Shown here piece after piece: positions 1-52,588 of a DNA stretch of 64,000 bases. Made by a program: the position numbers and the translations under genes. How positions within the stretch are numbered: the first letter of the stretch is position 1; every line of letters begins with the position of its first letter. Source of the DNA: Schmidtea polychroa. Lineage: Eukaryota. The stretch covers positions 39,184,001 through 39,248,000 of the forward strand of contig CM097885.1 of the NCBI GenBank assembly GCA_044892525.1. Reading direction: 5' to 3'. Below the pieces are notes generated by a model. It was not told where the DNA came from. It did no database searches and was given only the letters and a program-made list of their open reading frames with translations.

Positions 1-1
1 A

Positions 2-3000
2 GGATTATGCGGATACTATCGCAAATTTATCAAAAATTATGCAGGAATTGCAAAACCAATCCAGGAATTAGTAAAGAAGGACATTTCGTTCATTTGGGGG
101 AAGGAACAACAAGAGGCGTTCGAAACGCTGAGAGATAAACTAATCGAAGCACCTATCCTCGTACACCCAGATTTTAAGAAGCCATTTCTATTGGCAACGG
201 ATGCAAGCGGGTACGCGGCAGGCGCGATTCTGGGACAATTAGATGATGAAGGAAAAGAGAGAGTAATCGGGTATTACAGTCGAACATTCAAAAAGCACGA
301 AAAGAACTATTCGGTAACAGAACGGGAAGCATTGGCTATAATACAAGCTATCAAACACTTCCGATACTTACTATGGGGACATGAGATATGTATAACCACA
401 GATCATCAACCATTAGTGTGGTTAGGGCAACATAAAGAAGCGTCCAGTAGACTGATGAGATGGGCCATGCAATTGCAAGAATACTCCCCATTTATAAAAT
501 TCAAAGCGGGAAGAGCAAATGCCAACGCCGATTGTATGTCAAGATTTATTTTCCCAGATTTGGTGGATTCAGAAATGCAACGCATATGCTTAATAGTAGC
601 GGAAGATTTGGATTTCTGTCAACTGCGAAAGGACCAACAAGAGGACGCGGAATTAAAACAAATTATCGATTATGTAAAAACCGGAAAGACAGATGTATAT
701 GCGAAAGACCAAAAATTAAAAGAACATATGGATAAACACCGACACCGATATATTATAGAGAAAGATTGGTTGCTGATAATGGATGGGGAAAAACGATTAA
801 TGTGTATACCGGAAAACCGACGAAAAGAGTTACTAACGCAATATCACGATGGGAGATTGGGAGGACATATGTCATCGAAAAAGACGTTAGCAAGAATGAA
901 ACAGAAATATTTTTGGCCTACGTTAACTGAAGATGTAACCGAATGGGTAAAAAATTGTCTAACTTGTGCAACCAGGAAGAATACTGGATCGAAATGGAAA
1001 GCACCTTTAACGCCAATGCCAGTACCAATAGAACCAATGACAATGATATCCATGGACGTAGTTGGTCCACTACCAGAGTCAGATAAAGGAAACGTTTACA
1101 TTCTAGTGATCACAGACTTTCTTACGAAATTCCCAGAAGCATTCGCGATGCCAGACCAAAAAGCTAAAACAATCGCAAAAATTTTGGTAGAAGAGATATG
1201 TTGCCGATATGGAACACCAAAACAAATCTTAACCGATCAGGGAACTAATTTTATGAGTGAGATAATGAGCGAAGTAACAAATTACTTCAAAATAGCAAAA
1301 CTAAGAACATCTCCATACCACCCTCAAACCAATGGGATGACGGAAAGATTTAATGGAACACTTATACAAATGTTATCAAACTACGTCGACCGTCACCAAC
1401 GAGATTGGGACGAATATATAAACCTATGTCTTATGGCATACAGAATGTCGATTCACGCATCAACGAAAATGAGCCCATTCAAATTAATGTACGGAAGAGA
1501 GTGTAATATGCCAATGGACCTGGAATACCAACCACCGATATCGCAGTATATGGAGATCGATGATTATGTTACGAAATTCAAGGAAAGAATGCAAGAGATT
1601 TGGGAAACTGCGGGATTAAATATCAAGTTCTACCAGGAAAGTTATAAAGATTTACACGATCGAAAGAAAAACGTGAAGCAACATACGTTTCAAACAGGTG
1701 ATTGGGTAATGATAGAAACCCCGGAATTAATTCCAGGAACCACAAAAAAGTTACAACGCAACGGAAAAGGACCATATGAGATCTTATTCGTAGGCGAAAC
1801 TAATGTAAGAGTGAAATTGGTAAATAACCCCTTTACCAGGCCAATATACGTAAACGTGGCACGATGCAAATCAATTCCAAAAACAGCCACTAGTCAACCA
1901 GAAGGCCGTACATTAACCACACGTTCGCAAACCTACAGAATGAACATGATGCAACAACTCGCAGAACCGATCACTGGACGATTAGGTATCCAACCATCAG
2001 AAGCGGAAAAGATTGTAAAAGAGGTAAAAATTAAAATACCTGGATGGGCAAAAGATCGATTAGATTTCGAAATATTAGGAGGATTATTGACGATGATCGA
2101 GAACTATGCAAATAGAGAAAGGACACACCCATTATTGCGAGTAGTCAAAAGCCAATGGCCAATATTATTTACCATAACAGATCATTACGGAGACACACCA
2201 TTACACAAACTCATGAAAGTAGGTAACAACGAGCAAATACTAGAAACAATAGAAGCATTTCACGACTGCAAGCGATCAACAGAACAAACAAACAACCAAG
2301 GTTACACACCATTAATGATAGCCGCAAACAGAGGCAAAACAAAAGACGTTATAACCGCATTACTCGATACTGGATCGAAAATAACTACACAAGACCACGA
2401 GCGGAAAAACGCTCTATATCATGCTATCGAAGGGAGAAGTACCGAGGCGTTCACGTCATTGATGGAACTACTATCATATGAGGACAATCGAGAAGTCGGA
2501 AACATGTATGATGGATTATTAACAGCGATCAAAGAGAAACTGACAACAATTACCGGAATATTAATTACATGGAGAAATCCAATTCAAAACGATTATATGA
2601 TCAACGTAAACGAAGCGTTCACGAGAGGAGAGAACACGCTGATGAGAGAAGCTATGAAAGGACATCATTTATTCGAAATCCCGAATCAATTACTAGAACG
2701 AGGGATAAAATTCACAAATCACAAAGATGAACAGTTAACAAAAAAGCGAATCGACACATTCGAAAAATCACTATTCCAATTTACTAACCAAGTACGAAAT
2801 AAATATTGGGAAACGGTAAGTGTGTTATATATGATGGACACAATGAATAACATCCGCGAGAATTACCTGGATATTATCCAAATACTTACAGCAGAGGAAC
2901 GAATCAATAATCCAAACGGAAAGAAAACGAAAATAAGGTATGAGAAATCCAGGGAATCAAAGTCAACAACGAACCAAACGGTCACAAACAACGTCATCGA

Positions 3001-5158
3001 AACCAAATCAATGAGTATAGATCAAGAGGCAATAATACGCAAAGCAAAAGAAGTGTTCTTTGAGGAAATGCTAGAGCTGCCAGACGAAATAATATTGTCC
3101 AAAATAATAAAAGCCGTACACACATACGCAAGAGATCAAACCACGGGTTTAGATATCGGGAAAATCAAAACCTTCTTGCCTCGAGCATTTACGATGGTAA
3201 CAAAGGATTCCAGAACACCTCTACAACAAGCAATACTAGCTGCAAAAGAGAATAGAGCAATAACGATCATGAGCATCCTTGGGGAGATGGGCGAGGAAAC
3301 CAACACGAAAAATGAACAAGGTGAAACCGCCATGATGTATGCAGCTATAACGAAAATACACCCAAAAACACTCCACATCCTACATCAATCAGGATCGAAA
3401 CTAGACGAAAGGTCCAATGAAGGAAATTCCACCTTGGACTGGGCAACCATACAGCCAAACTTAGAAATGATCAGATTTATTTGCAAAAATGCGACAAAGG
3501 AAGAAGTTGAAAACATGTGCAAAGACACATCTCAGTTTCAATGGAATACGATACGGAAAAATCTAGAAGCAATGAAATTATTATTAACCTGGAGAGTACC
3601 ACAAAATAATAAATATGCGATAAATGTAAACGAATTCTACGAAAACGGAGAAAATGCGATGGTAAAGAACACCCTAACTAAGGGGGGGACGCCTAAAATT
3701 ATTTTAATAGTATTAAATAGAGAAGACCTAAAATTCACGCAAAATCAGAACGAGCAACAACGAATTGGGAAACATCGTCGCATGCAATTGAGAGAGTTAG
3801 TTAAAGAATGGAATAGAAAGAGACATGCTGCAACGGGTAGAAAAGAGTTTGAATTCGAAGCAAAATTAGCAAGAAACAGAGTGCTAACAGCATATCGCAG
3901 ATTATTGAACGATATAAATGTCGAGGACGACATTTTAAACGACAGCGGGGGAGATAAAAACGATGACAATGACGGAAAAGGCCGAAAGGAGGATAAAGGG
4001 AAAAGAGAACCGGAAGAGGATAAACCGGAAAACAAGGATTTGGATACGAAAAGAGAGGGAAACAGGCCGGGAACCAAGACCAAAGAGGAGGAAAAATCGA
4101 ATAATGGAAAACAGAGGGTATGCCTACCTTTCACTAACAAAGAAATAGAGACAAATATGATATTAATGATAATTATGCTTACCATGATAGAGTTAGTAAC
4201 AGCTCAGGGAGGGACGAGAACGATAAAAGAAACCAAAGAAGCGGAGAATCAAGATAGCAAAGAGGATGAACTAAAGCAAGAAAAGAAAAAGCAAGCACAA
4301 GAGCAGCAGTGGGATTTAAAGGAAGAATGGGACTTAAAGGAAAGGTGCATACTAGGAAGATGCATGTCTAGAGCGTATCAGAAACTAGTACTGATAAATG
4401 AGGACACAGAACCAATAACAGAAGTAAGAATACAAGAAGCATACCGAAATCGAGACGGGAAGAGAATAACGAACGTTAAAGGAAAAGAGGTACACCTAGG
4501 AAAAGGTGGTGAAGTAGTAATAACGCAGCTCCAACCTAGAAGAGAGCACAAAGTCTGTATTTCAAGATTAGGACCAGGTGAGAGATGCCATCAATATGTG
4601 ACGCAGCAGCAGCCGCCGAAAGAATACACGGTTTGTATCTGGAGGAATGAATCAAAAAGAGAATGCCGACGATACCCAGGGAAAAGAGGAAAGAAAAGAA
4701 AAAACCACGACGAAAAGAACGAAGGAGGAAAGCACAAGAAAACCGGCGAGGAAGCTCAGGACAACTATGTTTCGGAGGAAGAGATGGAAAAAATACAAAA
4801 GATGGCAAAGGATGGTATGAACGAGGAAATAGCAAGAATACGGGAAATGATGAAAGGAAATGGCAAAAGAGGAAACGAGAAAGGTATAGAAGCGATATCA
4901 ACATTAACGAACAAGGAGAAACCAGAGAATATAAGCGTGAAGCAGATGATGTGGATCAGTGGGATAATAATAACAGGGGCCTTCCTAATCATAACGGGGG
5001 GAACAATAAAAATAATCAAAGATAAACGACATCGCGGAGAACTAGAGATGACCCGAATCAGAAATTTCCAACATCGAGTGAAACGACCAAGTGATATCAA
5101 ACAAGAACAGTGGGTGGAGGCCTGGAACGCTCAGCGCCCTCCAAACTCACGTATATAG
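2..5158 (+). CDS. pol: Pol polyprotein (5'-partial): RT thumb/connection, RNase H, integrase, ankyrin modules, membrane-anchored tail
   Basis: Frame is open from nt 2 (GLCGYYRKFIKNYAGIAKP...PFLLATDAS). RNase H: TDAS...EREALAI...TDHQPL. Integrase HHCC: HDGRLGGH...CLTC. Integrase core: MDVVGP...TDQGTNF...ERFN. GPF/Y-like: GDWVMI...GPYEI. No stop until 5158. Confidence 0.96.
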   Translation, partial: GLCGYYRKFIKNYAGIAKPIQELVKKDISFIWGKEQQEAFETLRDKLIEAPILVHPDFKKPFLLATDASGYAAGAILGQLDDEGKERVIGYYSRTFKKHEKNYSVTEREALAIIQAIKHFRYLLWGHEICITTDHQPLVWLGQHKEASSRLMRWAMQLQEYSPFIKFKAGRANANADCMSRFIFPDLVDSEMQRICLIVAEDLDFCQLRKDQQEDAELKQIIDYVKTGKTDVYAKDQKLKEHMDKHRHRYIIEKDWLLIMDGEKRLMCIPENRRKELLTQYHDGRLGGHMSSKKTLARMKQKYFWPTLTEDVTEWVKNCLTCATRKNTGSKWKAPLTPMPVPIEPMTMISMDVVGPLPESDKGNVYILVITDFLTKFPEAFAMPDQKAKTIAKILVEEICCRYGTPKQILTDQGTNFMSEIMSEVTNYFKIAKLRTSPYHPQTNGMTERFNGTLIQMLSNYVDRHQRDWDEYINLCLMAYRMSIHASTKMSPFKLMYGRECNMPMDLEYQPPISQYMEIDDYVTKFKERMQEIWETAGLNIKFYQESYKDLHDRKKNVKQHTFQTGDWVMIETPELIPGTTKKLQRNGKGPYEILFVGETNVRVKLVNNPFTRPIYVNVARCKSIPKTATSQPEGRTLTTRSQTYRMNMMQQLAEPITGRLGIQPSEAEKIVKEVKIKIPGWAKDRLDFEILGGLLTMIENYANRERTHPLLRVVKSQWPILFTITDHYGDTPLHKLMKVGNNEQILETIEAFHDCKRSTEQTNNQGYTPLMIAANRGKTKDVITALLDTGSKITTQDHERKNALYHAIEGRSTEAFTSLMELLSYEDNREVGNMYDGLLTAIKEKLTTITGILITWRNPIQNDYMINVNEAFTRGENTLMREAMKGHHLFEIPNQLLERGIKFTNHKDEQLTKKRIDTFEKSLFQFTNQVRNKYWETVSVLYMMDTMNNIRENYLDIIQILTAEERINNPNGKKTKIRYEKSRESKSTTNQTVTNNVIETKSMSIDQEAIIRKAKEVFFEEMLELPDEIILSKIIKAVHTYARDQTTGLDIGKIKTFLPRAFTMVTKDSRTPLQQAILAAKENRAITIMSILGEMGEETNTKNEQGETAMMYAAITKIHPKTLHILHQSGSKLDERSNEGNSTLDWATIQPNLEMIRFICKNATKEEVENMCKDTSQFQWNTIRKNLEAMKLLLTWRVPQNNKYAINVNEFYENGENAMVKNTLTKGGTPKIILIVLNREDLKFTQNQNEQQRIGKHRRMQLRELVKEWNRKRHAATGRKEFEFEAKLARNRVLTAYRRLLNDINVEDDILNDSGGDKNDDNDGKGRKEDKGKREPEEDKPENKDLDTKREGNRPGTKTKEEEKSNNGKQRVCLPFTNKEIETNMILMIIMLTMIELVTAQGGTRTIKETKEAENQDSKEDELKQEKKKQAQEQQWDLKEEWDLKERCILGRCMSRAYQKLVLINEDTEPITEVRIQEAYRNRDGKRITNVKGKEVHLGKGGEVVITQLQPRREHKVCISRLGPGERCHQYVTQQQPPKEYTVCIWRNESKRECRRYPGKRGKKRKNHDEKNEGGKHKKTGEEAQDNYVSEEEMEKIQKMAKDGMNEEIARIREMMKGNGKRGNEKGIEAISTLTNKEKPENISVKQMMWISGIIITGAFLIITGGTIKIIKDKRHRGELEMTRIRNFQHRVKRPSDIKQEQWVEAWNAQRPPNSRI
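2170..3770 (+). other. Two duplicated ankyrin-repeat modules within the pol ORF
   Basis: Ankyrin motifs GDTPLHKL, GYTPLMIAA, KNALYHAI, RTPLQQAI, GETAMMYAA, GNSTLDWA. Each module ends in a shared cap: TWRNPIQNDYMINVNE...GEN and TWRVPQNNKYAINVNE...GEN. Confidence 0.85.
4157..5158 (+). other. Env-like/type I membrane segment at the pol C-terminus
   Basis: In-frame signal-peptide-like MILMIIMLTMIELVTAQ at 4157, a Cys-containing ectodomain, TM-like MMWISGIIITGAFLIITGGTIKII (about 4946-5017) and a basic cytoplasmic tail. Confidence 0.6.
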
Positions 5159-5318
5159 AAAGGAATATGACTGTATATAATTGTAAAAAGTAAGTATATC
5201 TTATGTATATAACAGTACTATATCTTTATATAAGCGCGGTATCAATATTATACAATAACGGGAATCATAAAATAAAATTAAAGTTAAATAAGAGTTGAAA
5301 AGTGTATATAAATTAAGA

Positions 5319-5665
5319 ATGGATCAAGGAAATAACGAAATGAACCACAATACAGTAACTGAAGAATTATGGAAGCAACAATGTGCCGTATTAGCACAAT
5401 TAGTGTCCAATTTGCAAGAACAAGGATTGACGATGCACAGAGTATGAATAGAGGATTTAGTTATTTGAAGATAATTGAAGACCAGAGGTTGAAAATCGAA
5501 CAAATGCAAAGAGAGATAGAGAGGATAACCCAATATAGCCGTAGACAGGAAATTGAACTAAACAGAATGATGGAGGAAGCAGAACAGACAGAAATAGAAG
5601 ACTGGTCGGAATGGTTAATGAATAGAGAGGAGAGCGGACACGAAGCCGACTCTTCCGAACCCTAA
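5319..5665 (+). CDS. Small coiled-coil/acidic cargo ORF, possibly frameshifted or stop-start coupled
   Basis: A 42-aa ORF at 5319-5447 (MDQGNNEM...LAQLVSNLQEQG) ends in a TGA that overlaps ATG 5444 (ATGA). That ATG is in the 5369-5665 frame (EDQRLKIEQMQREIER...). Confidence 0.5.
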
Positions 5666-5750
5666 ACCAAACCTAGCTTAAAATGTAAATAATTGTAAAT
5701 AAAATATCGAACCTGTATCGATAAGAACTATTTGTACATATAATTATAGA

Positions 5751-7139
5751 ATGGATAAACGACAAAGAGAAGAGTTCAGAGAGATTGTCGAGCAAGTCCG
5801 AAAATCTACAACGATCAGAATACACAAACATGTTATGTGCGGAATATGTGAAAAGTTGTTAAAGGAACCTCACCAAACGCAATGTGGATGCAGAGTATGT
5901 AAAGAATGTATCAGTGAAGCAATAAAGAATAGACCACAGAGGTGCCCGGTGTGTAAAGAGACACTAATATCGAGTTTAGAAGACACTAACGAGGATAAAG
6001 CCGCAGTGAAAGACATGTTAAACACCAACCTGGGATGCAAAAATGCCCCATGCGAATGGAAAGGAGTAATATGGAAGGTAGTACAACATATGGGAGAATG
6101 TATGTACAGAATTGGCCAGTGTGAAAGGTGCCATAAAACCATTCGAGCAAGCGAAGAAAAAGAGCATCAAAGGCAGTGTGAGGAGAGATTAGAAAGATGT
6201 GAACACTGTGGAGAAATAGATACGTGGAAAAATCTCACCCTCAAACATCACAATGTCCAAGAGGAGAGAGTATGTGCAGAGTTCAGTGGGGAATGCCCAA
6301 ACGGATGTAACCAAGGGGAAATAATGAAGGTGGCACAGCATCTAAGGGAATGTGAAAAGAAAAGAATGACATGCGTACTAGGCAAATGGGGTTGTCAGAA
6401 ACTACTACACCGAGGGGAGTTACCACATCATTTAGTAGAAAATGCTTCAACCCACGCAGAAATGTGGTCGACTGCGTTACAAGAAAGCGAGGAGAAAGTA
6501 AAACAAATGGAGATAGAGATAGCATCGTTGAAAGTATTAGTCAAAGAACTACTAGAAGAAAGGGAAGCGTTCGAAGAAGCCCGAGCAAACATAAAGATGC
6601 AAATAAACCGAATAGAAATCAGTAATAATCAGGCCAAGGAGCTACATCAGAAAATACGGGAAATAAATCTAAATGAGATAACCCCAACAGCACCCTACAT
6701 ATGGAAGATTACGGGAGTAAAGGAAAGAATACGAAAAGCAAAAACCGGAGAAGAGACAAGAATAACAAGTCCTGCATTCCATTCTTGGAAAAATGGGTAC
6801 AAAATGAAAATGAAGATATATCCCAACGGGGACGGAACCGGATTAGACACACACTTTTCGATTTTCTTTCTGTTATGTAAAGGAGAATACGACGAAATAA
6901 TAGAGTGGCCGTTCCAGGCGAAAATCGATATTGCACTAATGAATGACCGAAACATCCACGAACAAAGCTTCAAGACAACTGGAAACCAAATGTGTTACCA
7001 GAGACCTACGGAAGAAGAAGGATCAGCAACAGGAGCACCTACGTTCATCCTACAACAAAAAGTAGAAGATATGGCAAGAAAGGGCACGGTGTATATCAAG
7101 ATGACCGTAAGGAAAGAGGAGAAGGGCAGAACGGAGTAA
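5751..7139 (+). CDS. TRAF: Intronless full-length TRAF-family protein (RING, TRAF zinc fingers, coiled coil, MATH), TRAF2/3-like
   Basis: RING CGIC...QTQCGCRVCKEC...CPVC; linker DKAAVKDM...CKNAPCEWKG; TRAF-type zinc fingers; MATH domain YIWKI...SPAF...GYKMKMKIYPNGDGTGLDTHFSIFFLLCKGEYDEIIEWPF. Confidence 0.95.
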   Translation: MDKRQREEFREIVEQVRKSTTIRIHKHVMCGICEKLLKEPHQTQCGCRVCKECISEAIKNRPQRCPVCKETLISSLEDTNEDKAAVKDMLNTNLGCKNAPCEWKGVIWKVVQHMGECMYRIGQCERCHKTIRASEEKEHQRQCEERLERCEHCGEIDTWKNLTLKHHNVQEERVCAEFSGECPNGCNQGEIMKVAQHLRECEKKRMTCVLGKWGCQKLLHRGELPHHLVENASTHAEMWSTALQESEEKVKQMEIEIASLKVLVKELLEEREAFEEARANIKMQINRIEISNNQAKELHQKIREINLNEITPTAPYIWKITGVKERIRKAKTGEETRITSPAFHSWKNGYKMKMKIYPNGDGTGLDTHFSIFFLLCKGEYDEIIEWPFQAKIDIALMNDRNIHEQSFKTTGNQMCYQRPTEEEGSATGAPTFILQQKVEDMARKGTVYIKMTVRKEEKGRTE

Positions 7140-7333
7140 ACGATCGAATAATGTTGTATATAATAATCTGTATATATCGGTGTATATAACCAATAAAATA
7201 TTATATAATAATAGTATGAAAAACCCTAAATACGTAAACCCAAAAATGATGCGAAAATTTCCAAAGAAACAGCAAATAATGAATAAATTCCTTTTTCATA
7301 ATAAAAAGCTTAATCGATGTCTATGATTTAGAG

Positions 7334-8389
7334 ATGACACAAGAGAAACTAACCGAAACTGCGATAGTCCCAACCAATGTCAACAAGACACAAATTCCCC
7401 GAGAACATAACAAAAAATGGAACAAAGTAATGTTCCAACTAACTAATCTCACCCGAAATCACATCGAAGAAGCTAGAGAGGATGAGAATAGTCAATACCA
7501 ATGGTTAATACACAACTTAAGAGCGGAAGCAGAAGCATGCAAAAGAGCATCAAAATGGGCGTCACTAGAAAATACCCGCCAAGAAGCGCACAGCCACTAC
7601 TTAAAGCAGCTAGTGCAGGAAGCGAGAAAGAGACTTACCGATGAGAACACCAAGCGCGAAGCGGAAAAGCAAATAGAAGGAAGGAAAATGATGCACTTAG
7701 TGGCAGAAGCGAGAAAATGGAAAAGACAAAGCAATGAAATGAAAAAAGAGATGAAAGAATTGCCCATGAGACTCGGATATGAGAGCGAACAGGGTAAATG
7801 GGAGGAAAATTTAATAATAAAGGAAGAACTGAAACGGTTGAAAAAGGTCGCCGCCCGAAGCCAAACATGGCAGATGAAGGCTATGGAGTTTGAACGACAT
7901 TTGGCAATAAAATGCGACATAAGAGAGCACGAGAATGCCGCAATGGAAGAGATGATAACCCAGCAAGCAGGACGGGTTGTGGAATTAGTAAATCAGGTCG
8001 AAGAGATGAAAAGAGACCTTAATGGATTACAAGGATCGTTAGAACAAAGAAACATGGTCCTGGCGGGAAAAAACAGAAAATTAGAAAACGAGAGGAAAAT
8101 GTATACCGAAAATATCAAAAACTTGGAAATAGAAATTGAAAAATGGAAGGGCGACGAGAAAATCAAGGCCTTAGATAGACAAGTAGAGGCGAAAGACGAA
8201 GAGACAAGGTATCTCACTTATCTGCTCGACGAAGAGCTGAATATCACTCGAGCTCTAAGAGACGAAGTTAATGAATTGAGAGCTCAAATCCCCCAATATT
8301 ACCTACCCTATGACCCTATTGCGATACAGTTGCATCCAGCGGTCGATAGTGATGAAGGTTATGTGGGACAGGAGGAAACCTTCGTATAA
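7334..8389 (+). CDS. Uncharacterised coiled-coil cargo protein (351 aa)
   Basis: Long intact ORF with the same A-rich composition as pol; E/K/R heptad-rich; no recognisable domain. Confidence 0.75.
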   Translation: MTQEKLTETAIVPTNVNKTQIPREHNKKWNKVMFQLTNLTRNHIEEAREDENSQYQWLIHNLRAEAEACKRASKWASLENTRQEAHSHYLKQLVQEARKRLTDENTKREAEKQIEGRKMMHLVAEARKWKRQSNEMKKEMKELPMRLGYESEQGKWEENLIIKEELKRLKKVAARSQTWQMKAMEFERHLAIKCDIREHENAAMEEMITQQAGRVVELVNQVEEMKRDLNGLQGSLEQRNMVLAGKNRKLENERKMYTENIKNLEIEIEKWKGDEKIKALDRQVEAKDEETRYLTYLLDEELNITRALRDEVNELRAQIPQYYLPYDPIAIQLHPAVDSDEGYVGQEETFV

Positions 8390-8502
8390 GGGTGAATAAA
8401 AGGATAAAAACAAAAATCGGGACGTATATCCCAAACAAAAAAATTAAAGTATTGTAAAAGTATTCAAGGGACTGTAACCCGAACTATTAAAATTTTATAT
8501 AA

Positions 8503-9264
8503 ATGCATAAGTATAAGTCGCACTATAGCGCACCATTAACTGTACATATTACAGATATGAAAATCGAGGAAATAATAGAAATTACGAGCGACGTGGAAGA
8601 GGGAGAGATTGAGGCAGAAACAACAGAAACACAAACGTTAAAGGCCAAGTTACGGGAAGAGAGGGACGAAAACGAGAGACTAATAAACAAATATATAGAA
8701 GACCGAAAAATGATTAAAATACTAAAGAAGGAGTGCGAAGCGTTAGGAGAAATAAAGAGAGAAGCTGAAGAGAAGAATGAATGGTTGCAAGAACAACGAA
8801 CACGAGGAAGAAACTGGGAAAAGATTGCAGAGGAACTATGGCAAGAGAGGGCAAGCTTCAAGGCAGAAGAAGTAATCCAAGATTATTGGAAAACAGAGGC
8901 GAAAGAACACCAAATAACTATAAATAAATTAAATCGACAATTGGAGGAAAAACAACGAGAAAGTGAGGAAATGAAGAAATGGATTCGCAAGTACCAAGAG
9001 ATCGAGAGAAAACAACAACAACAACAACAACGAAACCTTTCGCAGGAAAACGAACAAGATTTCCTACAAATCGAACTAAAAAGGAATCTCGACAAAAAAC
9101 GGGAAGAAATTAAGAGACTGAAAAAGGAGATAAGGCACATGAAAAGGGAGGCCCGTGAAAAGAACAGACAGTTGGAAATGCTGCCCGAGTTAAGACACAG
9201 AGTCATTAAAGCGGAATCCACCCTGATGAGAATCGCCGAAAATAACCCAAACCAGAATCATTAA
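8503..9264 (+). CDS. Uncharacterised coiled-coil cargo protein (likely start ATG 8557)
   Basis: Intact 253-aa ORF with an acidic N-terminus, then heptads and a polyQ tract. ATG 8557 follows the shared TGTACATAT...AG motif. Confidence 0.75.
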   Translation: MHKYKSHYSAPLTVHITDMKIEEIIEITSDVEEGEIEAETTETQTLKAKLREERDENERLINKYIEDRKMIKILKKECEALGEIKREAEEKNEWLQEQRTRGRNWEKIAEELWQERASFKAEEVIQDYWKTEAKEHQITINKLNRQLEEKQRESEEMKKWIRKYQEIERKQQQQQQRNLSQENEQDFLQIELKRNLDKKREEIKRLKKEIRHMKREAREKNRQLEMLPELRHRVIKAESTLMRIAENNPNQNH

Positions 9265-9305
9265 ATTAAGGGTCACTAAAACCAATTGTAAATAAACCAT
9301 AATGA

Positions 9306-9965
9306 ATGTATAATAGTATCATGCGAGGCGAGATGATGATAACAATGACGGTATTGATGATTCTGACGGAGAACAAACAAGTAAACGCCCAACCGAAAAT
9401 CGTGCGAGATTACCGAAATCAAAATCAAGAACCTAAACGAGAATCCGGCCAATGCACATACCCTATGACAGTAAAAATCCATATCATCCAAACCCTTCAA
9501 TCAACCCGTTCACACATCAACAACATCCAAACAATGTGTAAAAAGAATCCCATTTGTAAAATGATAAACAAACAAATCCTCGAACAAATCCAACAATTCG
9601 ACCAGCTAGAACAACAAATGCAACAAGAGAATTTTGAAAATCTTGTAGAAAAGCCAAAAACACCTCCCGAAATCAATGACACCCATTATCTCATATATGT
9701 GGTGATCGCAGAAACCCTCCTCCTATGTCTACCAATACTCATGAAGATTTACGAAGTTAGAAATAAATGTAGAACCCCGACAGCAATAAGAGTAACCTCG
9801 AACAGAAATCCTCAAGAAGTGCCACTGACAAATCTTAACCCAACCCCATTCCGACCTCGAATCCCGAGTAACCAACCAATCCAGCCGAATTCTTACAGTC
9901 AGACCTATCTCAACATCAATACCCAAACCAACCAACAACCGCCGGCAGAAGCATCAAATGGTTAA
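9306..9965 (+). CDS. Small predicted type I membrane cargo protein
   Basis: Hydrophobic N-terminus MMITMTVLMILTENKQVNAQ, short helical ectodomain with two Cys, TM-like YLIYVVIAETLLLCLPILM, and a Pro/Asn/Gln-rich tail. Confidence 0.7.
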   Translation: MYNSIMRGEMMITMTVLMILTENKQVNAQPKIVRDYRNQNQEPKRESGQCTYPMTVKIHIIQTLQSTRSHINNIQTMCKKNPICKMINKQILEQIQQFDQLEQQMQQENFENLVEKPKTPPEINDTHYLIYVVIAETLLLCLPILMKIYEVRNKCRTPTAIRVTSNRNPQEVPLTNLNPTPFRPRIPSNQPIQPNSYSQTYLNINTQTNQQPPAEASNG

Positions 9966-10583
9966 CAGTTCATAAACTCTAACTCAAACATTGGTGATAT
10001 CATATGTAGAAACTTTTATTGTATATACAAACTATCACCTTAAGTGATACTTGCTTGGTCTTGATTTGACCTATATCTTAGAATAAAATTGTTTTATTAT
10101 TGTAATATAATTGTTTCGATATATCCTTTTTATGAATGCATGAAGTAAGATAACTATGCAATTGCGGGACGCAATTTTGATGGGTCCCCGAGTGATTTGT
10201 TGGGCTGAATCGAAGGGTAGTTGAGAAATTAGGGCAAACTTAACTAAAATAAAATAAAAAATAAAAACAAATAAATTGACAAACAAAATAGAATAAAACA
10301 TAAGAAAAACAATAATTAGAAAATAGGAATTAAAACAAAAAATATAAAGATGAGAAAAAATTAAAATAGGACAATAGAATGGCGGAAAACAACGTAAAAT
10401 ATAGTAAATAATAAGAAAATTAAGGAAAATAAATAAAAACATAATTTTAATAAAGAAAGTAAGAAGAAATAACTCAAAAACAAGGAAAATAAATTAAATT
10501 AATAAAATTAAGCGGTACTCAATTCTAATTGGTCCGCGCAAACAAAAAATTAATATATAAGCAGGCATTAAAAACATAACAAT

Positions 10584-10659
10584 TACTGTTAATCAACCAC
10601 CTCAATAGGTAAGCGAAATTTAAACAAAAATACTGTTAATCAACCACCTCAATAGGTAA
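10584..10659 (+). repeat. 29-bp direct repeat pair in the LTR (U3 enhancer-like)
   Basis: TACTGTTAATCAACCACCTCAATAGGTAA at 10584 and 10631; also present in the second LTR copy. Confidence 0.8.
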
Positions 10660-12633
10660 ATCTATTCTACGACAGAACAGAACTCCAGCAACTAACGCAC
10701 GATAACTCACGAGGACAATCCCAAGATTCAAGAGATTTTTACAGAACTAGACGATATTCGAGCATTAACTGATTCGACATAGTACCCTTTTCGACTCAGC
10801 CCATACTTGTATCAATCATTCAGTAAGGATTTTTGATTGCTTATTTTGAATTTTTAAGTAATGCGTATAGTTTAATAATATTTTTAATTTAAAAAATGGT
10901 TTTTCTTTTCGTTTGATTTTCGAATGCTTTACTTAAATTAATAATTTGCTTAATAATAAATGATTTGCTCGTTAAGAATTATTGATCTTTTATGAATTAA
11001 TTTGTATGAATTATTGGAGACTATTCAATTTTGCGAGAAACGTGGCGTTGAGATACTCTATGTCATGGTGTGAGGTGCCTTCGGGAGCTCCACCGGTGGA
11101 CATAGGGTATTTCAATCACGCAGCTAGATTGGGCCGAAATGTGAGGGCTTCTTCACGGGTCCAATTGCTGAAGGTGCGACTAAAAGCTATAGGTAAATGG
11201 TGGCAGAAAATTGATAGTCATGTAGTGATTGAAAACAAAGATATATAATAAAGGAATCGGAGAGTTTGGATGTATTCGCGCAGTGATTGAGGGTGTCGCA
11301 CTATCGTCTTCAAATATCGTTTTTGCTAAACCTAAAAATCTCTCTATCATCAATGTAGGTTGTGCGTCAAAAATTGTTCAAACCTTAATGAGGCTATCTG
11401 TGACATATCTTTGATGTTCATACCTTTCACTCAGAATCTGTTCCGACCAATTTTAGCCTATGACCTTTTGAACTATTATTCCGTTCACCTAAAAGTTCTC
11501 TTAAAGACATCGTTGCAAGGAAGCTCAAAGTAGATTGCTTCAGATAATTATTGGAATTATTCCAAATGACTGTTTACGGATAAATTGTAGAACTACGTAA
11601 AATAATTTATTATAGATAATTGTTAGAACTTCATAAAACGAGTTTGTTCCAATTAAAATTTTGAATTACATAAAATAATTTACTTCAATTAATTTTTTTT
11701 TGAATTATATAAAAATATTTACCTATAATCAATTATCATAATTACACGAACTATTGGCATCAAATAATTTAAAATGAAAAATGCAACCAATTCGAACCAA
11801 GAAAATATATTTCTTCAAGTTAACCGATAATCTTGTTAAATACAAAATTCCAGTATTACATGAGGTTGGCAATCCAGCAGAGATAGGAAAAAATCCTCCA
11901 GCACTTAGAGAGTAGATTGATAAACTAGGCTTGAGGAATTAGAGACGAAAAATCCACCCTTGGAGCAAGCAGTATCCAACATTTGCAATATAGATAATTT
12001 TAATTTTTCCAATAATCCGGTGAGAATTAGTAAATCATCACCATATGCCGTAGAATTGTGAGCGAATACGCGGTGGATAAAATTCTGAGAGAATGCCATC
12101 ATGCAAACATTCAACGCCTGCATTGGTAGTATAATTAAGCGGGTGAAAGCGCACCTGGCATGCGTCACCAGTTGCAGACTTACCTAATAGCCAAGTACAG
12201 TAGACAAAGTCACACACGCATCTACTCATGAAAAATTAGATCGAACATGCCAATTAAACTACCGACAGCTATCAGATTTCACCGCTTCGGATTAAGAGTC
12301 AATCACTGGGCTGACATTACCTTATCTACCCAGCAGGTATGATCGACTACTAGCTCACACTGATACCGTGCTCAGTTGTTATAAAGACACTAACATTTAA
12401 TGATAAACTCGATCATAATTATGAGTATTCTCTCGTTATTATCTTAGCATGAATGGCACCGAAATTATTTCATTTTTTGACATAGTTATCATTAATATTA
12501 GTATCGAATATTGTTAAATAAATATTATGTAAACCAGGTAAAACACATACGTGAGTAATTAAAGAAAATGAATAAACAATTAAAAATTTAAATAACCTTC
12601 CGTTTATCCTGTAGGAACTAATCAACAGGCATT

Positions 12634-13757
12634 ATGGACCCCTTTTCCATAGATAGTCACTCGACCCCAATATATGATACACTCAGTAAAAGCACTCGTA
12701 CGGGGGGAGAAGTCGACAATTTAAATCGATTCTCGGTAAACGTGAAATAATGACTCCAAGCGGATTAAATAAATAATCAGTTTCATCGACATAGAATTTC
12801 TCTCACAAACAGTAATATCTTCCTTTTCCTTGTGCGAAATCTGGGTTGATTGATTTATCTTCTTATAATTAAAGCCCCGAAAGGGTACGAGAATCCATCG
12901 CGTAGTAGAACTTGTCCTGACTGGTAAACCCTTATTTTTGTCTATGATCAGTACAGTATGAATGTAGTCAGGTGGTGACGCTCCCGCTGATTTAATTATT
13001 TTCATTTTCTTTTTCACAGTCGCTCAAAATGTTGCCAAATTCCAAGCCCGTTCTTCGACCTTGTTTTTCTTGCTCCGACAAGAATTCAATTATCAAAGAG
13101 CTCCAGGCCCAAATTGGCAAGCACAAAAGAAGGATAGATGAGTTAGAGGGGACATGGTTTAGTCCCACCCAGATGAAGGAGGCTCAGAAGAAGCTGCACC
13201 GAAGCGAGCACTGTAGAGACGCGTTGATTTCCGAGAGTCGGGCGCAGAGGAGCCTGATAAAAGAGCAGTCGGAGGCGCTGCACAAATTGTACGTCCAGGC
13301 CGCAACTACAAGGAAGATCGCGAAGATCCCGATTAACGAAGCCAGTAACCTTTTCCCAGCACATCATGATATCTCTGGAAAGTCCTGCCATGGGTGCGTA
13401 GAGACCGAGCTCTCACCTAAAGGACCAGAAATCATCTTTACCGGAACCAGTAAAGTGCTACCTGCGATAGCATCCACCTCAGCAGCACCCTCGACCAACC
13501 AAACAGCATCGAAGCCAAAGCGTCGACAATTATCGAGAGCAGAACGAAAGAAAAAACAGCGGGAACGCATAACCGCCAAACAGAACCAGCAATCGTCGGA
13601 TCATCCAATCAAAGTCATCAACCCCCCTGCAGCAATCGATTTAGCACCAGTGATCTCAGGGCGAATCATCTCCGCCGCTGGTGTTACCTGGGAGGAAAAC
13701 GCCTCTGAGTTTTTCGATTTGGAAGATCTATTGGCAGACTCGGAGTGGGAGAAATGA
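12634..13757 (+). CDS. LTR-encoded spliced gene (exons 12634-12735 and 13020-13757; 279 aa): CxxC, coiled coil, basic NLS-like segment, acidic tail
   Basis: 34-codon exon MDPFSID...NRFS ends at a GT donor (12736). A polypyrimidine TTTTCATTTTCTTTTTCACAG acceptor at 13019 joins it in frame (SLK) to the 242-aa ORF. Contains KPKRRQLSRAERKKKQRER and ends FFDLEDLLADSEWEK. Confidence 0.72.
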
Positions 13758-13891
13758 GAACTTCCCCGTAAAAAGTCTTCGTTCTCTGAATTGACCTGAA
13801 CATTGTCTGATAACATTTTACCTTGTCTCTTTTCCCGTTGTCGTGAACTTTATTGTATAGGTGTTAGATATATTTGTGTGATAATCTTAAT

Positions 13892-13897
13892 AATAAA
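13892..13897 (+). promoter_or_regulatory. Candidate polyadenylation signal in the LTR
   Basis: AATAAA 135 nt after the LTR ORF stop, followed by a GT/T-rich tract. Confidence 0.5.
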
Positions 13898-16800
13898 CCA
13901 TTTTTGTCTGCATACGTTCTTTTTGTGTTCATCTTAAGACAGTTGAGTTGAAATTGGTAAATGGTATTGAGAGTCATAAAATTATGAGGAGCATTAGTCA
14001 GTTGGTAAACTCAGCTAGAAATATTGCGATGGGGCGACGGAATGAGTAGACGTAAGTCCTTCTATCGGCAGTCAGGGTTGGGAAGTCGAGGCCTCAGTAA
14101 GGAGTAGTCCGAAGGAGCTGGCTCACCTGCTTACTGGCGTCTCGCCGGCATAGCACAGTTCCAACGTGAAGCAATTCACGGGTGCTATGTTGGAGTGTAA
14201 GTTATGTACGGGTCCCGCTCGGCGATGACCAAATAAATGACGGGCGAAATCGAGGTGGGCATTCATCCTCTAGACTAAAGCTGCACTAGAAAGGGGTCAT
14301 CCGAGTAGTGTACCCGCAACAACTGTAAAAATAAAAATTGTGGAACGTTCTGTGCTGTTCCGGGCTTTATTTTATTCGTAGGATTAACCTTTGAATATTA
14401 TTACAAGCGCTAAATTTTTGGGCGATTATACTAAAAATGTTTGGGGTATTTATATTAGATTTTTAAGCCAGATGTTATTTTAAAATAAATTATATTAATT
14501 TCTAGTGTTAAGAATTGTATTTCAAGTATGATCTTAAGAACAAATTATATTATTTTACCTAAAGAAATATTATTTTATTTTTATTTTCAGTTAATTCAAG
14601 AATACTTGAATTATTCTGACTAAAATTTTTCAGCTGTTTATTTATTAAAGAAATTTTACCTTTAATTAAAATTTATTGTTATTAATTTAAAATATTAAAT
14701 TAAAAATTATTAAAATATTTTCCCTTGTATAAAATTATATTGTAATCATTTATTAAAAAGTTAACTAATAAAATACTCAGTCTATTAAATATATACACCC
14801 GATAAAATATACATCATTAATCAGACAGTATTATACATAAATAATCAGACAGAAATTAATCAGAATAATAATAAAGGATAAAATATGCACAGATTGTTAG
14901 CTATTTCGAGGATAATGTTTGATCAATAATATTTACACAAATTAAATCGTTCAAGAATAATGTTTTGTTGAATTAACTTGAATTGATTGGATTGTTTCTG
15001 GATTGAATTGGGTTGCATGGAATTGGGTTGTTGATTGTTGGGAAATTAGATTGTCTATTTATCTACGCTCTTCGGTGTATACATTGACTCGGTATCTCTT
15101 GGGCCCTGTCCTATAATACCGGTTGAGGTTAAATGTGGTGATGTGCCTACCTTCATCATCCAACATACTTAATCTCCTTGAGTAACTCTGAGTTGTTATT
15201 GTCGTTCCCGACCAATATAAAACAATCTTTCATCACTATTACAATATATTACAAAACTACAGTAAACTTTATTGTCAAGTCACTGAAACATTATATTAAT
15301 AATACAGGATACTAATAATCAAAGGAATAGAAATTAGAACCCGGAACTTTAATAATATAAATAAGTATTATTGTCGACAAAGGTTCAAATATGCACTCCT
15401 CATCTGAGGCATTCATAACATTTGCATAGTATATTACTTCACTTTTTGGTGGTACTTCTTTGACAGATTCGTGTTTCATTATAATTTGAAATGAATTTAA
15501 AGTTTCAGTGACAGACGAGACCCATTAACTATTGACTGACTCATTTAATTTGTCTGTTTTCAGAAATCTATATGAAATCTATTGATCCTGTTAGCTTCCA
15601 CTGGCGTCATGAGAATCGCGGCGGGTTGGTCGAGAGTTTGAGTGGTCTGTGACTTGACAGCTCTGTGGCAACTGCTTGTTTGTCAAGGATGTGAGATTTA
15701 GAGACTGAAGGTTTATCTGTTTGATAATCTTGTTTTAATTAATTGTCGGGGTATTTTGAAACTTTAATTGAAAGTTTTTTACAGAAATTAAAACAACATT
15801 TCGATTTTCCTGGGTGTTCTTTACTATTGCTAATTTAATTTGATTTAATTAACAAATTAGGAGTGATGACACTAAAGCTTTTAGGGAAATTTTGCAAGTA
15901 GTTGCTGATATATCAATGATAGGTTAATTTGGTGTTGCTTTTTACTTGTTTTACCCGATTGCAAATAAAGTTCAAGTTATTTCAAAAGGTAATGATAGAC
16001 AATATTTATGAGAATCATTGGCTGATGGGTCTAAAAGTTAAGTATAATAGTTATAAACCAATTGCTAGAGGTTCTTAAGTCATTTTAAACATAAAAGAAG
16101 ATCAAATTAAATATCTGAATGAAAAGATCCAATCATCAACCTAGAATTATATTCTATTGACTAAAAGTATGCAACAAAAGCATCGGAAAGTTCTCCATTG
16201 ATGCAAATAATAAAAGAGAAAATTTATTTTCTAACAAAATTACTAAACTTCATACAATTCAAATTGAAAGAAATTAACGATGTTAAGATTAAGTTTCACA
16301 ATGCAAAATAAAGAAATAACCAAATACCAGATGATGAAACTACAGTAACAAAAGAGAAGGAAAGTGAAGAAACCGAAAGTAAATCGAAACTTGAATATTT
16401 GGATGATGACGATAAAAATATAAAGATTAAAAGGAAAAGAAAAGATGCTGGTGTAGAAGAGTTAAATAAAAATAACCCGATTTAGACAATAATCCAAAAT
16501 CGAAAAATATTAATTAATTTAATTATGTTTAAAAAGCCAAGAAAAAGCCTATTATCATTAAGTTTTAAGAAAAAATCCTTCATTGAAATTATGATAAAAT
16601 TATGTATGTCGAAAATTCAAATTTTTGTGTCAATTTGAATTCTTCTGTAAATCTAATCATATTTCTTGACCAGCCATTTCAACCTTATACCAAACTTTCA
16701 ACAGCTTTAGTTCACCTGATTGTAAAATTAAGTTTTGTAATCAGAATTCAAAATCTTATTTAATGGAGAGTTAGGTGAATAGAGAAAAATAAGTACATGC

Positions 16801-31785: not shown

Positions 31786-32975
31786 TTATATACGGTTTTT
31801 GGGCTAGAATCGAAAGTTTGTTTCAATGGATCAAAAATACATAACATAAAAACCGCACAAAGTTGAATACACAAATAATACAAAATAAAGTACATGGAGA
31901 ATAAATAAAACACATAATAAAATAAAGAAATAAATAAATTGAAAAATTGAAACTAAAAATTTCTATTAACGGATAAAATAATAAAAAGTAAATTAAAATT
32001 ATATAAAAAGTTAAAATTAGGTAATTTATAAAATTTATAGAATTAAATTGTTAGAATTAATAAAAATTAAATAATTACACACACTCATGCATGTGTGCAA
32101 AAGTAATTCAAATTTACTGCATTCTGATTGGATCTAGTGGCAGATAATGTAATCAAAATCAGTTTGGTTTAGTTAATTTTTTTTGTTCTTTTTATCGTTT
32201 GCTTCTAAGTTTTAATATTTACAGTTTGCATGAATGTTATTTTATTTGATTTTTATGACTGAGATTATTTTTAATGTCGTTGGATTGAACAGTGTCCAAG
32301 AGATGTTGGCACTTGCGTTGATGCCAGAGCGGAAGCTTGACAGTTTGGGGCATGATTTGAATGGGATTTATTCCTTTATAGATATCCACGAATCCATATG
32401 AATTTTAAAAGTATTTATCGTTTTGAATGTCTTCGGATTGAACGGTGTTTGTGAGGTGTTCGGGCATGCGTTGATGCCAGAGCGGATGCTTGACAGTTCG
32501 GAGCATTGTTTTGAATAGATATAGCATAGACTGGTTCGTCACTGTTATTTTTATGGATTTTATTGAGTTAGGAGCGGCAATAAAGTAAATAAGATCGGTT
32601 ATAAGTAGTTAGAGTTTAGTTTTGGTCAGTATAATGGAATTTATGAGTAGTTAGGATATCAAATAAGTCAGGATCGGAAATATAGACAGATCCCTGCACA
32701 ATCTTTTCAAAGGATGAGTCGAATATTATCAAACATAATAGAAGGTCGGGAACAATATGTATTAGTTGGGAAATAAGGGCGGATTCCTGAGCAAAATTTG
32801 GAAAAAAGAACTATAGCAAACACCCAGAAATGAGGACCATGATTCACTGAATAAACAACAATAATCTAACAACAGAAATAGATAATAAAAAATGACGTAA
32901 GACCTTCTATCGGCAGTCCAGAACCCGAAAAGAAAATATCACGATGAGTAATTTTAGTAATAGAGCTCACCTACT

Positions 32976-35900
32976 TGTTGGGCTGAATCGAAGGGTAGTT
33001 GAGAAATTAGGGCAAACTTAACTAAAATAAAATAAAAAATAAAAACAAATAAATTGACAAACAAAATAGAATAAAACATAAGAAAAACAATAATTAGAAA
33101 ATAGGAATTAAAACAAAAAATATAAAGATGAGAAAAAATTAAAATAGGACAATAGAATGGCGGAAAACAACGTAAAATATAGTAAATAATAAGAAAATTA
33201 AGGAAAATAAATAAAAACATAATTTTAATAAAGAAAGTAAGAAGAAATAACTCAAAAACAAGGAAAATAAATTAAATTAATAAAATTAAGCGGTACTCAA
33301 TTCTAATTGGTCCGCGCAAACAAAAAATTAATATATAAGCAGGCATTAAAAACATAACAATTACTGTTAATCAACCACCTCAATAGGTAAGCGAAATTTA
33401 AACAAAAATACTGTTAATCAACCACCTCAATAGGTAAATCTATTCTACGACAGAACAGAACTCCAGCAACTAACGCACGATAACTCACGAGGACAATCCC
33501 AAGATTCAAGAGATTTTTACAGAACTAGACGATATTCGAGCATTATCTGATTCGACATAGTACCCTTTTCGACTCAGCCCATACTTGTATCAATCATTCA
33601 GTAAGGATTTTTGATTGCTTATTTTGAATTTTTAAGTAATGCGTATAGTTTAATAATATTTTTAATTTAAAAAATGGTTTTTCTTTTCGTTTGATTTTCG
33701 AATGCTTTACTTAAATTAATAATTTGCTTAATAATAAATGATTTGCTCGTTAAGAATTATTGATCTTTTATGAATTAATTTGTATGAATTATTGGAGACT
33801 ATTCAATTTTGCGAGAAACGTGGCGTTGAGATACTCTATGTCATGGTGTGAGGTGCCTTCGGGAGCTCCACCGGTGGACATAGGGTATTTCAATCACGCA
33901 GCTAGATTGGGCCGAAATGTGAGGGCTTCTTCACGGGTCCAATTGCTGAAGGTGCGACTAAAAGCTATAGGTAAATGGTGGCAGAAAATTGATAGTCATG
34001 TAGTGATTGAAAACAAAGATATATAATAAAGGAATCGGAGAGTTTGGATGTATTCGCGCAGTGATTGAGGGTGTCGCACTATCGTCTTCAAATATCGTTT
34101 TTGCTAAACCTAAAAATCTCTCTATCATCAATGTAGGTTGTGCGTCAAAAATTGTTCAAACCTTAATGAGGCTATCTGTGACATATCTTTGATGTTCATA
34201 CCTTTCACTCAGAATCTGTTCCGACCAATTTTAGCCTATGACCTTTTGAACTATTATTCCGTTCACCTAAAAGTTCTCTTAAAGACATCGTTGCAAGGAA
34301 GCTCAAAGTAGATTGCTTCAGATAATTATTGGAATTATTCCAAATGACTGTTTACGGATAAATTGTAGAACTACGTAAAATAATTTATTATAGATAATTG
34401 TTAGGACTTCATAAAACGAGTTTGTTCCAAATAAAATTTTGAATTACATAAAATAATTTACTTCAATTTTTTTTTGAATTATATAAAAATATTTACATAT
34501 AATTAATTATCATAATTACACGAACTATTGGCATCAAATAATTTAAAAATGAAAAATGCAACTAACTCGAGCCAAGAAAAATATATTTCTTCAAGTTAAC
34601 CGAGGATCTTTTTAATTAAATAAAAAATTCCAGTATTTCATGGGGCTGGCAATCCAGCAGGGACAGGTAGAAATCCTCCAGCACTTAGAGAGTAGCTCGA
34701 TAAACTATGTTTGAGGAATTAGAGACGAAAAATCCACCCTTGGAGCAAGCAGTATCCAACATTTGCAATATAGATAATTTTAATTTTTCCAATAATCCGG
34801 TGAGAATTAGTAAATCATCACCATATGCCGTAGAATTGTGAGCGAATACGCGGTGGATAAAATTCTGAGAGAATGCCATCATGCAAACATTCAACGCCTG
34901 CATTGGTAGTATAATTAAGCGGGTGAAAGCGCACCTGGCATGCGTCACCAGTTGCAGACTTACCTAATAGCCAAGTACAGTAGACAAAGTCACACACGCA
35001 TCTACTCATGAAAAATTAGATCGAACATGCCAATTAAACTACCGATAGCTATCAGATTTCACCGCTTCGGATTAAGAGTCAATCACTGGGCTGACATTAC
35101 CTTATCTACCCAGCAGGTATGATCGACTACTAGCTCACACTGATACCGTGCTCAGTTGTTATAAAGACACTAACATTTAAGGATAAACTCGATCATAATT
35201 ATGAGTATTCTCTCGTTATTATCTTAGCATGAATGGCACCGAAATTATTTCATTTTTTGACATAGTTATCATTAATATTAGTATCGAATATTGTTAAATA
35301 AATATTATGTAAACCAGGTAAAACACATACGTGAGTAATTAAAGAAAATGAATAAACAATTAAAAATTTAAATAACCTTCCGTTTATCCTGTAGGAACTA
35401 ATCAACAGGCATTATGGACCCCTTTTCCATAGATAGTCACTCGACCCCAATATATGATACACTCAGTAAAAGCACTCGTACGGGGGGAGAAGTCGACAAT
35501 TTAAATCGATTCTCGGTAAACGTGAAATAATGACTCCAAGCGGATTAAATAAATAATCAGTTTCATCGACATAGAATTTCTCTCACAAATAGTAATATCT
35601 TCCTTTTCCTTGTGCGAAATCTGGGTTGATTGATTTATCTTCTTATAATTAAAGCCCCGAAAGGGTACGAGAATCCATCGCGTAGTAGAACTTGTCCTGA
35701 CTGGTAAACCCTTATTTTTGTCTATGATCAGTACAGTATGAATGTAGTCAGGTGGTGACGCTCCCGCTGATTTAATTATTTTCATTTTCTTTTTCACAGT
35801 CGCTCAAAATGTTGCCAAATTCCAAGCCCGTTCTTCGACCTTGTTTTTCTTGCTCCGACAAGAATTCAATTATCAAAGAGCTCCAGGCCCAAATTGGCAA

Positions 35901-51960: not shown

Positions 51961-52588
51961 TTTAAAAGCAAATTACTTTCATTGCGTGCAAATAAAACAT
52001 ATAAACTGATAAAATAAATCATTAACAATGTATATATTTATTAAAAATATTAATTACAGTATCAAAAATGCACGATAAAGTATATTCAAACTTACGGAAA
52101 TAAAACGCAGTAATGATCATAAAAATATAAACAATTATTGCAACAAATTAAATTACACTTTATCATTAATGCCTTGAACGTTTGTCACAAAATTTCATAT
52201 TCATATTGTTTGATATATTACTTAATAGAAACAGTCAAAACATATTGTAAAATTAATAGAAATTTTTTCAGTCAGGCTGTCNNNNNNNNNNNNNNNNNNN
52301 NNNNNNNNNNNNNNNNNNNNNNNNNNNNNNNNNNNNNNNNNNNNNNNNNNNNNNNNNNNNNNNNNNNNNNNNNNNNNNNNNNNNNNNNNNNNNNNNNNNN
52401 NNNNNNNNNNNNNNNNNNNNNNNNNNNNNNNNNNNNNNNNNNNNNNNNNNNNNNNNNNNNNNTAATAAAACATGATTATACCGATCACCTACCCCATGAC
52501 TACCCGTCTATAACTATTCATAATAATATTATTTATATATATATATATATATATATATTACTTATAAATTTATAAATTAACCCTATAA

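Follow-up and report, generated by a model that had tools for sequence, protein, structure and literature searches.

The stretch of DNA analysed here (hereafter the window) comprises 64,000 nucleotides of Schmidtea polychroa (GCA_044892525.1, contig CM097885.1, positions 39,184,001 to 39,248,000 of the forward strand), and its positions 1-14321 form the 3' half of a 30.3-kb long terminal repeat (LTR) retrotransposon. The 3' LTR (10198-14321, 4.1 kb) is 99.5% identical to a 5' LTR located 16.0-11.8 kb upstream of the window. The LTRs have the form TG...CA, a 4-bp target duplication surrounds the element, and a motif common to copies directly 3' of the 5' LTR was taken as a candidate primer-binding site (PBS). 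A single open frame spans about -9040 to 5158, and behind it lies a cargo cluster of five same-strand open reading frames (ORFs), A1 to A5, with spacers of 160, 85, 194, 167 and 56 nt in front of them. These spacers contain two positional classes of short motif, TGTAHATA shortly behind the upstream stop codon and AG just before the next ATG. The element, the two classes, their strand bias and their conservation are direct observations, and from them we propose how the cargo ORFs may be expressed. The features of the element within the window are:

2..5158, + strand: 3' part of the polyprotein (RNase H, integrase, ankyrin repeats); the frame extends about 9 kb upstream of the window
5159..5318, + strand: spacer 1, with TGTATATA at 5172 (stop+14), 5204 and 5303, TGTA at 5182, a donor-like GTAAGT at 5190 and AG at 5316-5317
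5319..5665, + strand: cargo ORF A1, with a frameshift near 5440 in the window copy
5666..5750, + strand: spacer 2, with TGTAAATA at 5684 (stop+19) and 5694, TGTACATA at 5733 and TAG at 5747-5749
5751..7139, + strand: cargo ORF A2, TRAF-like, 462 amino acids (aa), with a MATH domain above the Pfam cut-off and a RING-like N-terminus below it
7140..7333, + strand: spacer 3, with TGTATATA at 7155 (stop+16), 7169 and 7181 and TAG at 7329-7331; TGTA is absent near its ATG (7334)
7334..8389, + strand: cargo ORF A3, 351 aa, 31% identical to cargo B4 of family B (see below), with no Pfam family over the cut-off
8390..8556, + strand: spacer 4, with a variable A-tract at 8437, TGTACATA at 8541 and CAG at 8552-8554 (TAG in other copies); the stop-proximal motif is absent
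8557..9264, + strand: cargo ORF A4, its start set by conservation (an in-frame ATG at 8503, 5' of this start, is not kept in all lineages)
9265..9320, + strand: spacer 5, with TGTAAATA at 9287 (stop+23), TGTA at 9307 and TAG at 9314-9316
9321..9965, + strand: cargo ORF A5, the last ORF, without a stop-proximal motif behind it
10082..10087, + strand: AATAAA followed by T-rich sequence in the 3' untranslated region (UTR), a candidate common polyadenylation (polyA) signal
10198..14321, + strand: 3' LTR, with donor-like sites at 10609 (AG/GTAAG), 14052 and 14197 (both GTAAGT)
13029..13757, + strand: 242-aa ORF within the LTR, with a textbook pyrimidine-rich CAG acceptor 9 nt upstream

In a genome search with the A2 MATH domain, at least 150 matches were scored from 1,488 candidates. 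A Pfam search also led to a sister family, family B, which has a 4,791-codon frame and six cargo ORFs (B1-B6), one of them with a BIR domain that family-A cargo does not contain. Four family-B cargo proteins match family-A cargo at 26-32% identity; the spacers of the two families are otherwise dissimilar and cannot be aligned. The ATG at 5319, which an earlier note on this DNA had taken to open a cargo ORF, begins only a short frame in the window copy and does open A1 (119-125 aa) in 18 of 20 other copies. Locus counts given below refer to related loci, a few of which were fetched twice, and divergent loci fell below the mapping threshold.

We scored 11 spacers (five in the window element, six in family B) with dinucleotide shuffles as the chance control. 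TGTAHATA occurs 11 times in the 662 nt of the five window spacers versus 0.55 expected (0/1000 shuffles), and it is confined to the plus strand, with no occurrence on the minus strand or in 9,302 nt of coding sequence. We observed AG 0-4 nt before the ATG in 11/11 spacers (shuffle mean 3.4; 0/5000) and YAG at this position in 9/11 (shuffle mean 1.35; 0/5000), in comparison to YAG before 31 of 318 internal in-frame ATGs at the same placing. TGTA starts 12-20 nt before the ATG in 8/11 spacers (shuffle mean 1.4; 0/3000) and 12-24 nt after the previous stop in 10/11 (shuffle mean 2.1; 0/5000). As the position windows were picked after inspection of the sequence, these P values are optimistic. AATAAA, which had also been listed as a spacer signal, is not enriched in the five window spacers (7 versus 5.3 expected; 287/1000 shuffles), and AATAAA cassettes were dropped as the main explanation for this reason.

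The earlier note had described one shared motif, TGTA(C/T)A...AG...ATG, in front of each cargo ORF. The five strings and ATGs that it quoted lie at the positions given, yet the motif is a composite, as the AG belongs to the downstream ORF and the most conserved TGTAHATA follows the upstream stop. In addition, the site before the ATG at 7334 reads TGTCTA, and 34 of 35 loci have no such TGTA there. What the note had missed is the class with the tighter anchoring, in which TGTA begins 14-23 nt behind the preceding stop.

Given its placing and conservation, we consider it likely that the AG 0-4 nt before each cargo ATG acts as a weak 3' splice acceptor, one of the options that the earlier note had named. 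The AG is retained before A1 to A5 in 72/74, 75/76, 69/69, 58/58 and 15/16 loci and before B1 to B6 in 35/35, 35/36, 38/38, 38/39, 36/37 and 38/38 loci, and the loci without it are mostly loci without the ATG. Across the 58 loci scored for A4, the acceptor reads TAG in 35 and CAG in 23, and the spacing between AG and ATG varies from 0 to 6 nt across lineages. This interchange and this variable distance indicate that the AG is neither a stop codon nor a start context, so a TAG stop of the upstream ORF and a Kozak context were both dropped as main explanations; genome-wide, no B3 start has a purine at -3. Other ORFs of these elements have comparable sites, with textbook T-rich acceptors 2 and 9 nt before the ATGs of a 5' RING ORF and of the LTR ORF, respectively, and TAG directly before the ATG of a family-B 5' ORF. 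The intron ends inferred in the host Pumilio gene resemble the cargo sites, and the T fraction is 0.37 in the last 25 nt before the cargo AGs versus 0.18 before internal ATGs. Among the candidate donors, GTAAGT at 5190-5195 is invariant in 21/21 aligned sequences and absent from a 68% diverged lineage, and the 14052 site lies in a block common to a different LTR type, which keeps GTAAG. Finally, one copy (L083) lacks exactly 9272-9316 of spacer 5, a segment with GT at its start and the A5 AG at its end.

Several observations weigh against an acceptor function. The acceptor, leader and 3' UTR readings are all drawn from DNA sequence, and as the copies are related, the locus counts are not independent events. 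The T fraction of 0.37 does not amount to a clear pyrimidine tract, A1 (mostly) and B6 use AAG (2/11 sites), and the branch-point-like TRAY found 15-26 nt from the AG in 8/11 spacers was scored without a chance control. The loss in L083 is suggestive only, since it was seen in a single genomic copy, with 1 nt of ambiguity and a local donor that is weak; other deletions in L083 are not GT-AG. A formal filter applied to 36 loci, which drops junctions with inserted letters (including the other L083 deletions), returned 4 clean deletions of at least 30 nt, 1 of them GT-AG, and sixteen other deletion junctions read by eye included none that were GT-AG. Genome searches with retrocopy patterns, which detect only exact matches with a purine at -3, gave 2 matches for a leader joined to A2, both native TAG+2 variants, and 0 for a leader joined to B3; for splicing from the 5190 GTAAGT there were 6 matches, of which 4 were native, judging by the text matched, and 2 came from a diverged lineage without GTAAGT. 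Among the rows listed for contigs X1-X4 (one study, kind not on record), none of the five AGs coincided with a joint or a loose end, which says nothing either way.

The second class of motif, TGTA(A/T)ATA located 14-23 nt after a stop, behaves, as judged from its distribution, as though it belonged to the 3' UTR of the ORF before it. The stop-linked TGTAHATA is present behind four family-A stops in 66/67, 72/73, 68/68 and 31/33 loci and behind five family-B stops in 35/35, 36/36, 37/38, 32/37 and 38/38 loci, it is kept in further diverged relatives, and it is often doubled, with 9-14 nt between the two sites. It persists when the downstream ORF is lost: in a family-B derivative with dead cargo, TGTAAATA lies 17 nt behind the polyprotein stop in 11/11 loci, and of the 10 loci mapped around the former first ATG, 3 still have an AG close to it and none a YAG. 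We found no such motif behind the last ORFs (0/18 in family A, 0/39 in family B), in keeping with nested mRNAs that share one 3' end, a long 3' UTR then being found only behind upstream cistrons; it is also absent behind the stops of 20/20 host TRAF-like paralogues. Two sites speak against this assignment, as the one behind B3 has TGTA without HATA and the motif is missing behind A3 (spacer 4) in all 72 loci.

At homologous positions, family A has T and family B has A as the fifth base of this motif. The fifth base is the degenerate position of the Pumilio element UGUAHAUA (bioRxiv 10.1101/2025.01.03.631239; this and all further sources are cited for the portions consulted). An A or T at this base is more in keeping with a UGUAHAUA Pumilio element than with UGUA plus AAUAAA. 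A Pumilio gene is present in the host and encodes eight repeats (SRFIQ, NYVIQ, CRVIQ, NHVVQ, CRVIQ, NYVIQ, SNVVE, NYVIQ), a series that we take to be the classical (canonical) PUF code. On these grounds host Pumilio would be the most likely reader, with about an even chance of being the right one. Against it stands CFIm25, another UGUA reader encoded by the host, which is a less probable but still appreciable candidate and the next to consider.

These data support the general proposal of the earlier note that the spacers contain a repeated cis-signal for cargo expression. We think it probable, if by a modest measure, that two functions are combined, with AG acceptors that would give one mRNA per ORF and a stop-linked motif of Pumilio type. 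One LTR-driven transcript would either stay whole, as genomic RNA, or have a short leader joined to one of the acceptors, after which each cargo ATG would be the first start codon of its own mRNA. A leader spliced in cis from an LTR donor appears somewhat likelier than a host spliced leader (SL), with a small remainder for other sources; as flatworms use the same acceptors for cis- and trans-splicing (PMC12582326), DNA does not separate the two. The TGTA 13-18 nt before the ATG would be spliced out with the intron and may modulate how strong the acceptor is. A terminating ribosome covers motifs up to ~15 nt from the stop. The stop-linked UGUAHAUA would occupy the first position free of this ribosome, from which it may control stability, translation or the 3' end of the mRNA of the upstream cistron.

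A bolder version, which we consider possible though doubtful, is that giant retroelements of planarians act as eukaryotic operons with a modular spacer grammar, in which a Pumilio-type element at each cistron end and a leader-taking acceptor (possibly for the host SL) at the next start tie the cargo to the stem-cell RNA circuit of the host. If so, such elements would place anti-apoptotic and TRAF cargo under Pumilio control and trans-splicing, and duplicating a spacer would suffice to take in a new gene.

The alternative closest to this reading is an operon of the Caenorhabditis elegans SL2 type, which keeps the acceptors and differs in the leader and in the role of TGTA: UGUA plus an A-rich hexamer would cleave and polyadenylate the upstream cistron, and a host SL would be trans-spliced to the next AG. 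The spacers of 56-194 nt on one strand agree with it, as flatworm operon distances peak at ~100 bp (PMC8629364) and a threshold of 300 bp is used for flatworm operons (PMC12582326). So does the doubling of UGUA, a CFIm signal in mammals (PMC10476966), in a host that encodes CFIm25, and in Caenorhabditis elegans the gypsy element Cer1 undergoes SL1 trans-splicing (PMC3315495). A further point in its favor comes from A-tracts. Behind the B4 stop, all 32 loci that could be anchored, out of 40 tried, have an A-tract of 8-64 nt. Its 5' edge takes 12 different positions 10-51 nt after the stop, and this variety resembles captured poly(A) tails, which, if real, would favor cleavage in the spacers. 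However, 5/32 edges fall before the motif or within it, the commonest edge is only 13 nt behind the motif start, and slippage can explain such edges, so that either origin is possible on sequence grounds. Tracts of at least 12 A were mapped to spacers and none to family-A or family-B cargo ORFs, with the qualification that mapping was poor for one tract in family A and for the 11 derivative tracts and that A-tracts in coding sequence would be selected against. The lack of AATAAA enrichment also argues against the operon, as do planarian polyA sites, which show no UGUA enrichment, with CFIm59/68 not detected, in the consulted part of PMC5068929, and the last ORF, which has AATAAA and T-rich sequence in place of the motif. 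Moreover, genomic RNA would be lost to cleavage at five or six places within it. We therefore regard an SL2-type operon as rather unlikely, and the polyA cassettes of classical type suggested in the earlier note find weak support at best.

The remaining alternatives dispense with acceptors. Were cargo ORFs translated by coupling on an unspliced polycistronic RNA, with a protein bridging both TGTA classes and ribosomes reinitiating, the symmetric geometry (stop+14..23 and ATG-13..18, approximately the ribosome edge) and the restriction to the plus strand would be accounted for. YAG would remain unexplained, as CAG is not a stop codon and TAA never replaced TAG across loci; every spacer has 1-7 ATGs upstream of the start, and the spacers are longer than known termination-reinitiation junctions, all of which makes coupling improbable. 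Internal promoters for each cargo gene, another suggestion of the earlier note, could use TGTATATAA as a TATA box or GTAAATA as a forkhead site, and TATATAA does occur in spacers 1 and 3. But with a TATA box 16 nt before the ATG, transcription would begin within the ORF. The sequence is TGTAAATA at half of the sites, the minus strand has none, and the motif is tied to the stop upstream of it and outlives the ORF downstream of it; we give promoters very little credence. Least plausible of all is a chance pattern, or inheritance without function, for which the AT-rich spacers and the common ancestry of both families might be invoked. Pure chance is refuted by the counts, which 0 of 1000-5000 shuffles reach, and the motifs persist while the rest of the spacer is unalignable and the proteins are only 26-32% identical.

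To place the element among known systems, we compared it with Burro/GYPSM1 elements, which exceed 30 kb and have multi-kb LTRs, a polyprotein of ~4,700-4,800 codons with ankyrin repeats, and accessory ORFs that include MATH/TRAF, BIR and RING cargo (PMC6431247). Our element likewise exceeds 30 kb and combines a ~4,800-aa polyprotein containing ankyrin repeats with cargo of TRAF type (the BIR cargo is in family B only), and RNase H precedes integrase (the Ty3/gypsy order) in a domain scan that covered the window part. It therefore fits a Burro-type Ty3/gypsy element, a placement made by architecture and not by sequence comparison with the named Burro1-4. The accounts of Burro are silent on accessory-ORF expression in the portions of PMC6431247 consulted. 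In complex retroviruses and the adenovirus major late unit, a single promoter serves several weak acceptors, and one ORF starts shortly behind each of them. The cargo cluster would resemble them in both respects, whereas its donor sites are only candidates, and a Pumilio-type element fixed behind each stop is not known from either system. SL operons of flatworms and nematodes also have same-strand genes ~100 nt apart and an acceptor near UUNYAG (PMC8629364, PMC12582326), but here the cluster lies inside a retroelement and AATAAA is not enriched. The subgenomic mRNA of Cer1 is cis-spliced and SL1 trans-spliced and its genomic RNA skips the sites (PMC3315495), giving one spliced product in contrast to the five or six cargo cistrons here. 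Pumilio response elements agree in the exact 8-mer, the sense strand, the untranslated location and the variable fifth base (bioRxiv 10.1101/2025.01.03.631239) and differ in that the predicted sites here hold a fixed distance to the stop within a polycistronic element. Elements of this type, expression from multiple acceptors and, in Cer1, the trans-splicing of an SL to a gypsy transcript have all been described before. The literature searched, as far as consulted, contained nothing on spacer signals of Burro; a 2026 Dev Cell paper on Burro1 and supplements lay outside this search.

The expression of the many Burro accessory genes is unexplained in the parts of the literature consulted. One of these genes, B-IAP, reportedly protects stem cells of planarians (cited in PMC13465017), and Burro RNA goes up after piwi knock-down (PMC8532177). 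Our reading makes base-exact predictions for five acceptors in the window element and six in family B. A stop-anchored element would tie a transposon to Pumilio control, and the fixed distance from stop to motif, repeated ten times, would be a natural experiment on RNA-binding proteins beside terminating ribosomes.

We also recorded features of these elements outside this argument. Spacer 4 conserves three short GC-closed palindromic segments together with its variable A-tract, and folding of this spacer gave no consistent structure. In family B, the A-tract behind the B4 stop (L085:7388-7520 and homologous loci) is hypervariable; its 5' edge falls at many different places, and some short duplications accompany it. 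A protein search with cargo B3 gave no match at E 1e-40. Seven further groups were sampled by PBS; two are family-A relatives with the same spacer grammar, and the other five had no cargo cluster within the stretches fetched. A short family-B derivative, with the polyprotein reduced (up to ~1,480 aa) and the cargo decayed, accounts for 11/40 sampled family-B-type loci (L120, L125, L132 and 8 more).

At 10160-10189, just 5' of the 3' LTR, lies a GC-rich motif common to both families, with 562 genome-wide matches and no obvious polypurine tract. Some match pairs are ~26 kb apart on the same strand (e.g. L004/L005 and L019/L020), which is consistent with tandem elements that have one LTR in common. 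The loci L104, L105 and L107 belong to one copy whose internal region is about 94-99% identical to that of the window and whose LTR aligns in three short blocks only, which suggests LTR swapping between subfamilies. The RING-like ORF between the 5' LTR and gag (L032:8474-8974) has a strong acceptor and its own AATAAA and is followed on its 3' side by about six 74-bp tandem repeats. Elsewhere in the window, a 70-bp tandem repeat occupies 52588-52940 in host DNA, and a solo LTR of the same family (32975-37122) is 98.6% identical to 10197-14321 and has its own 4-bp target duplication.

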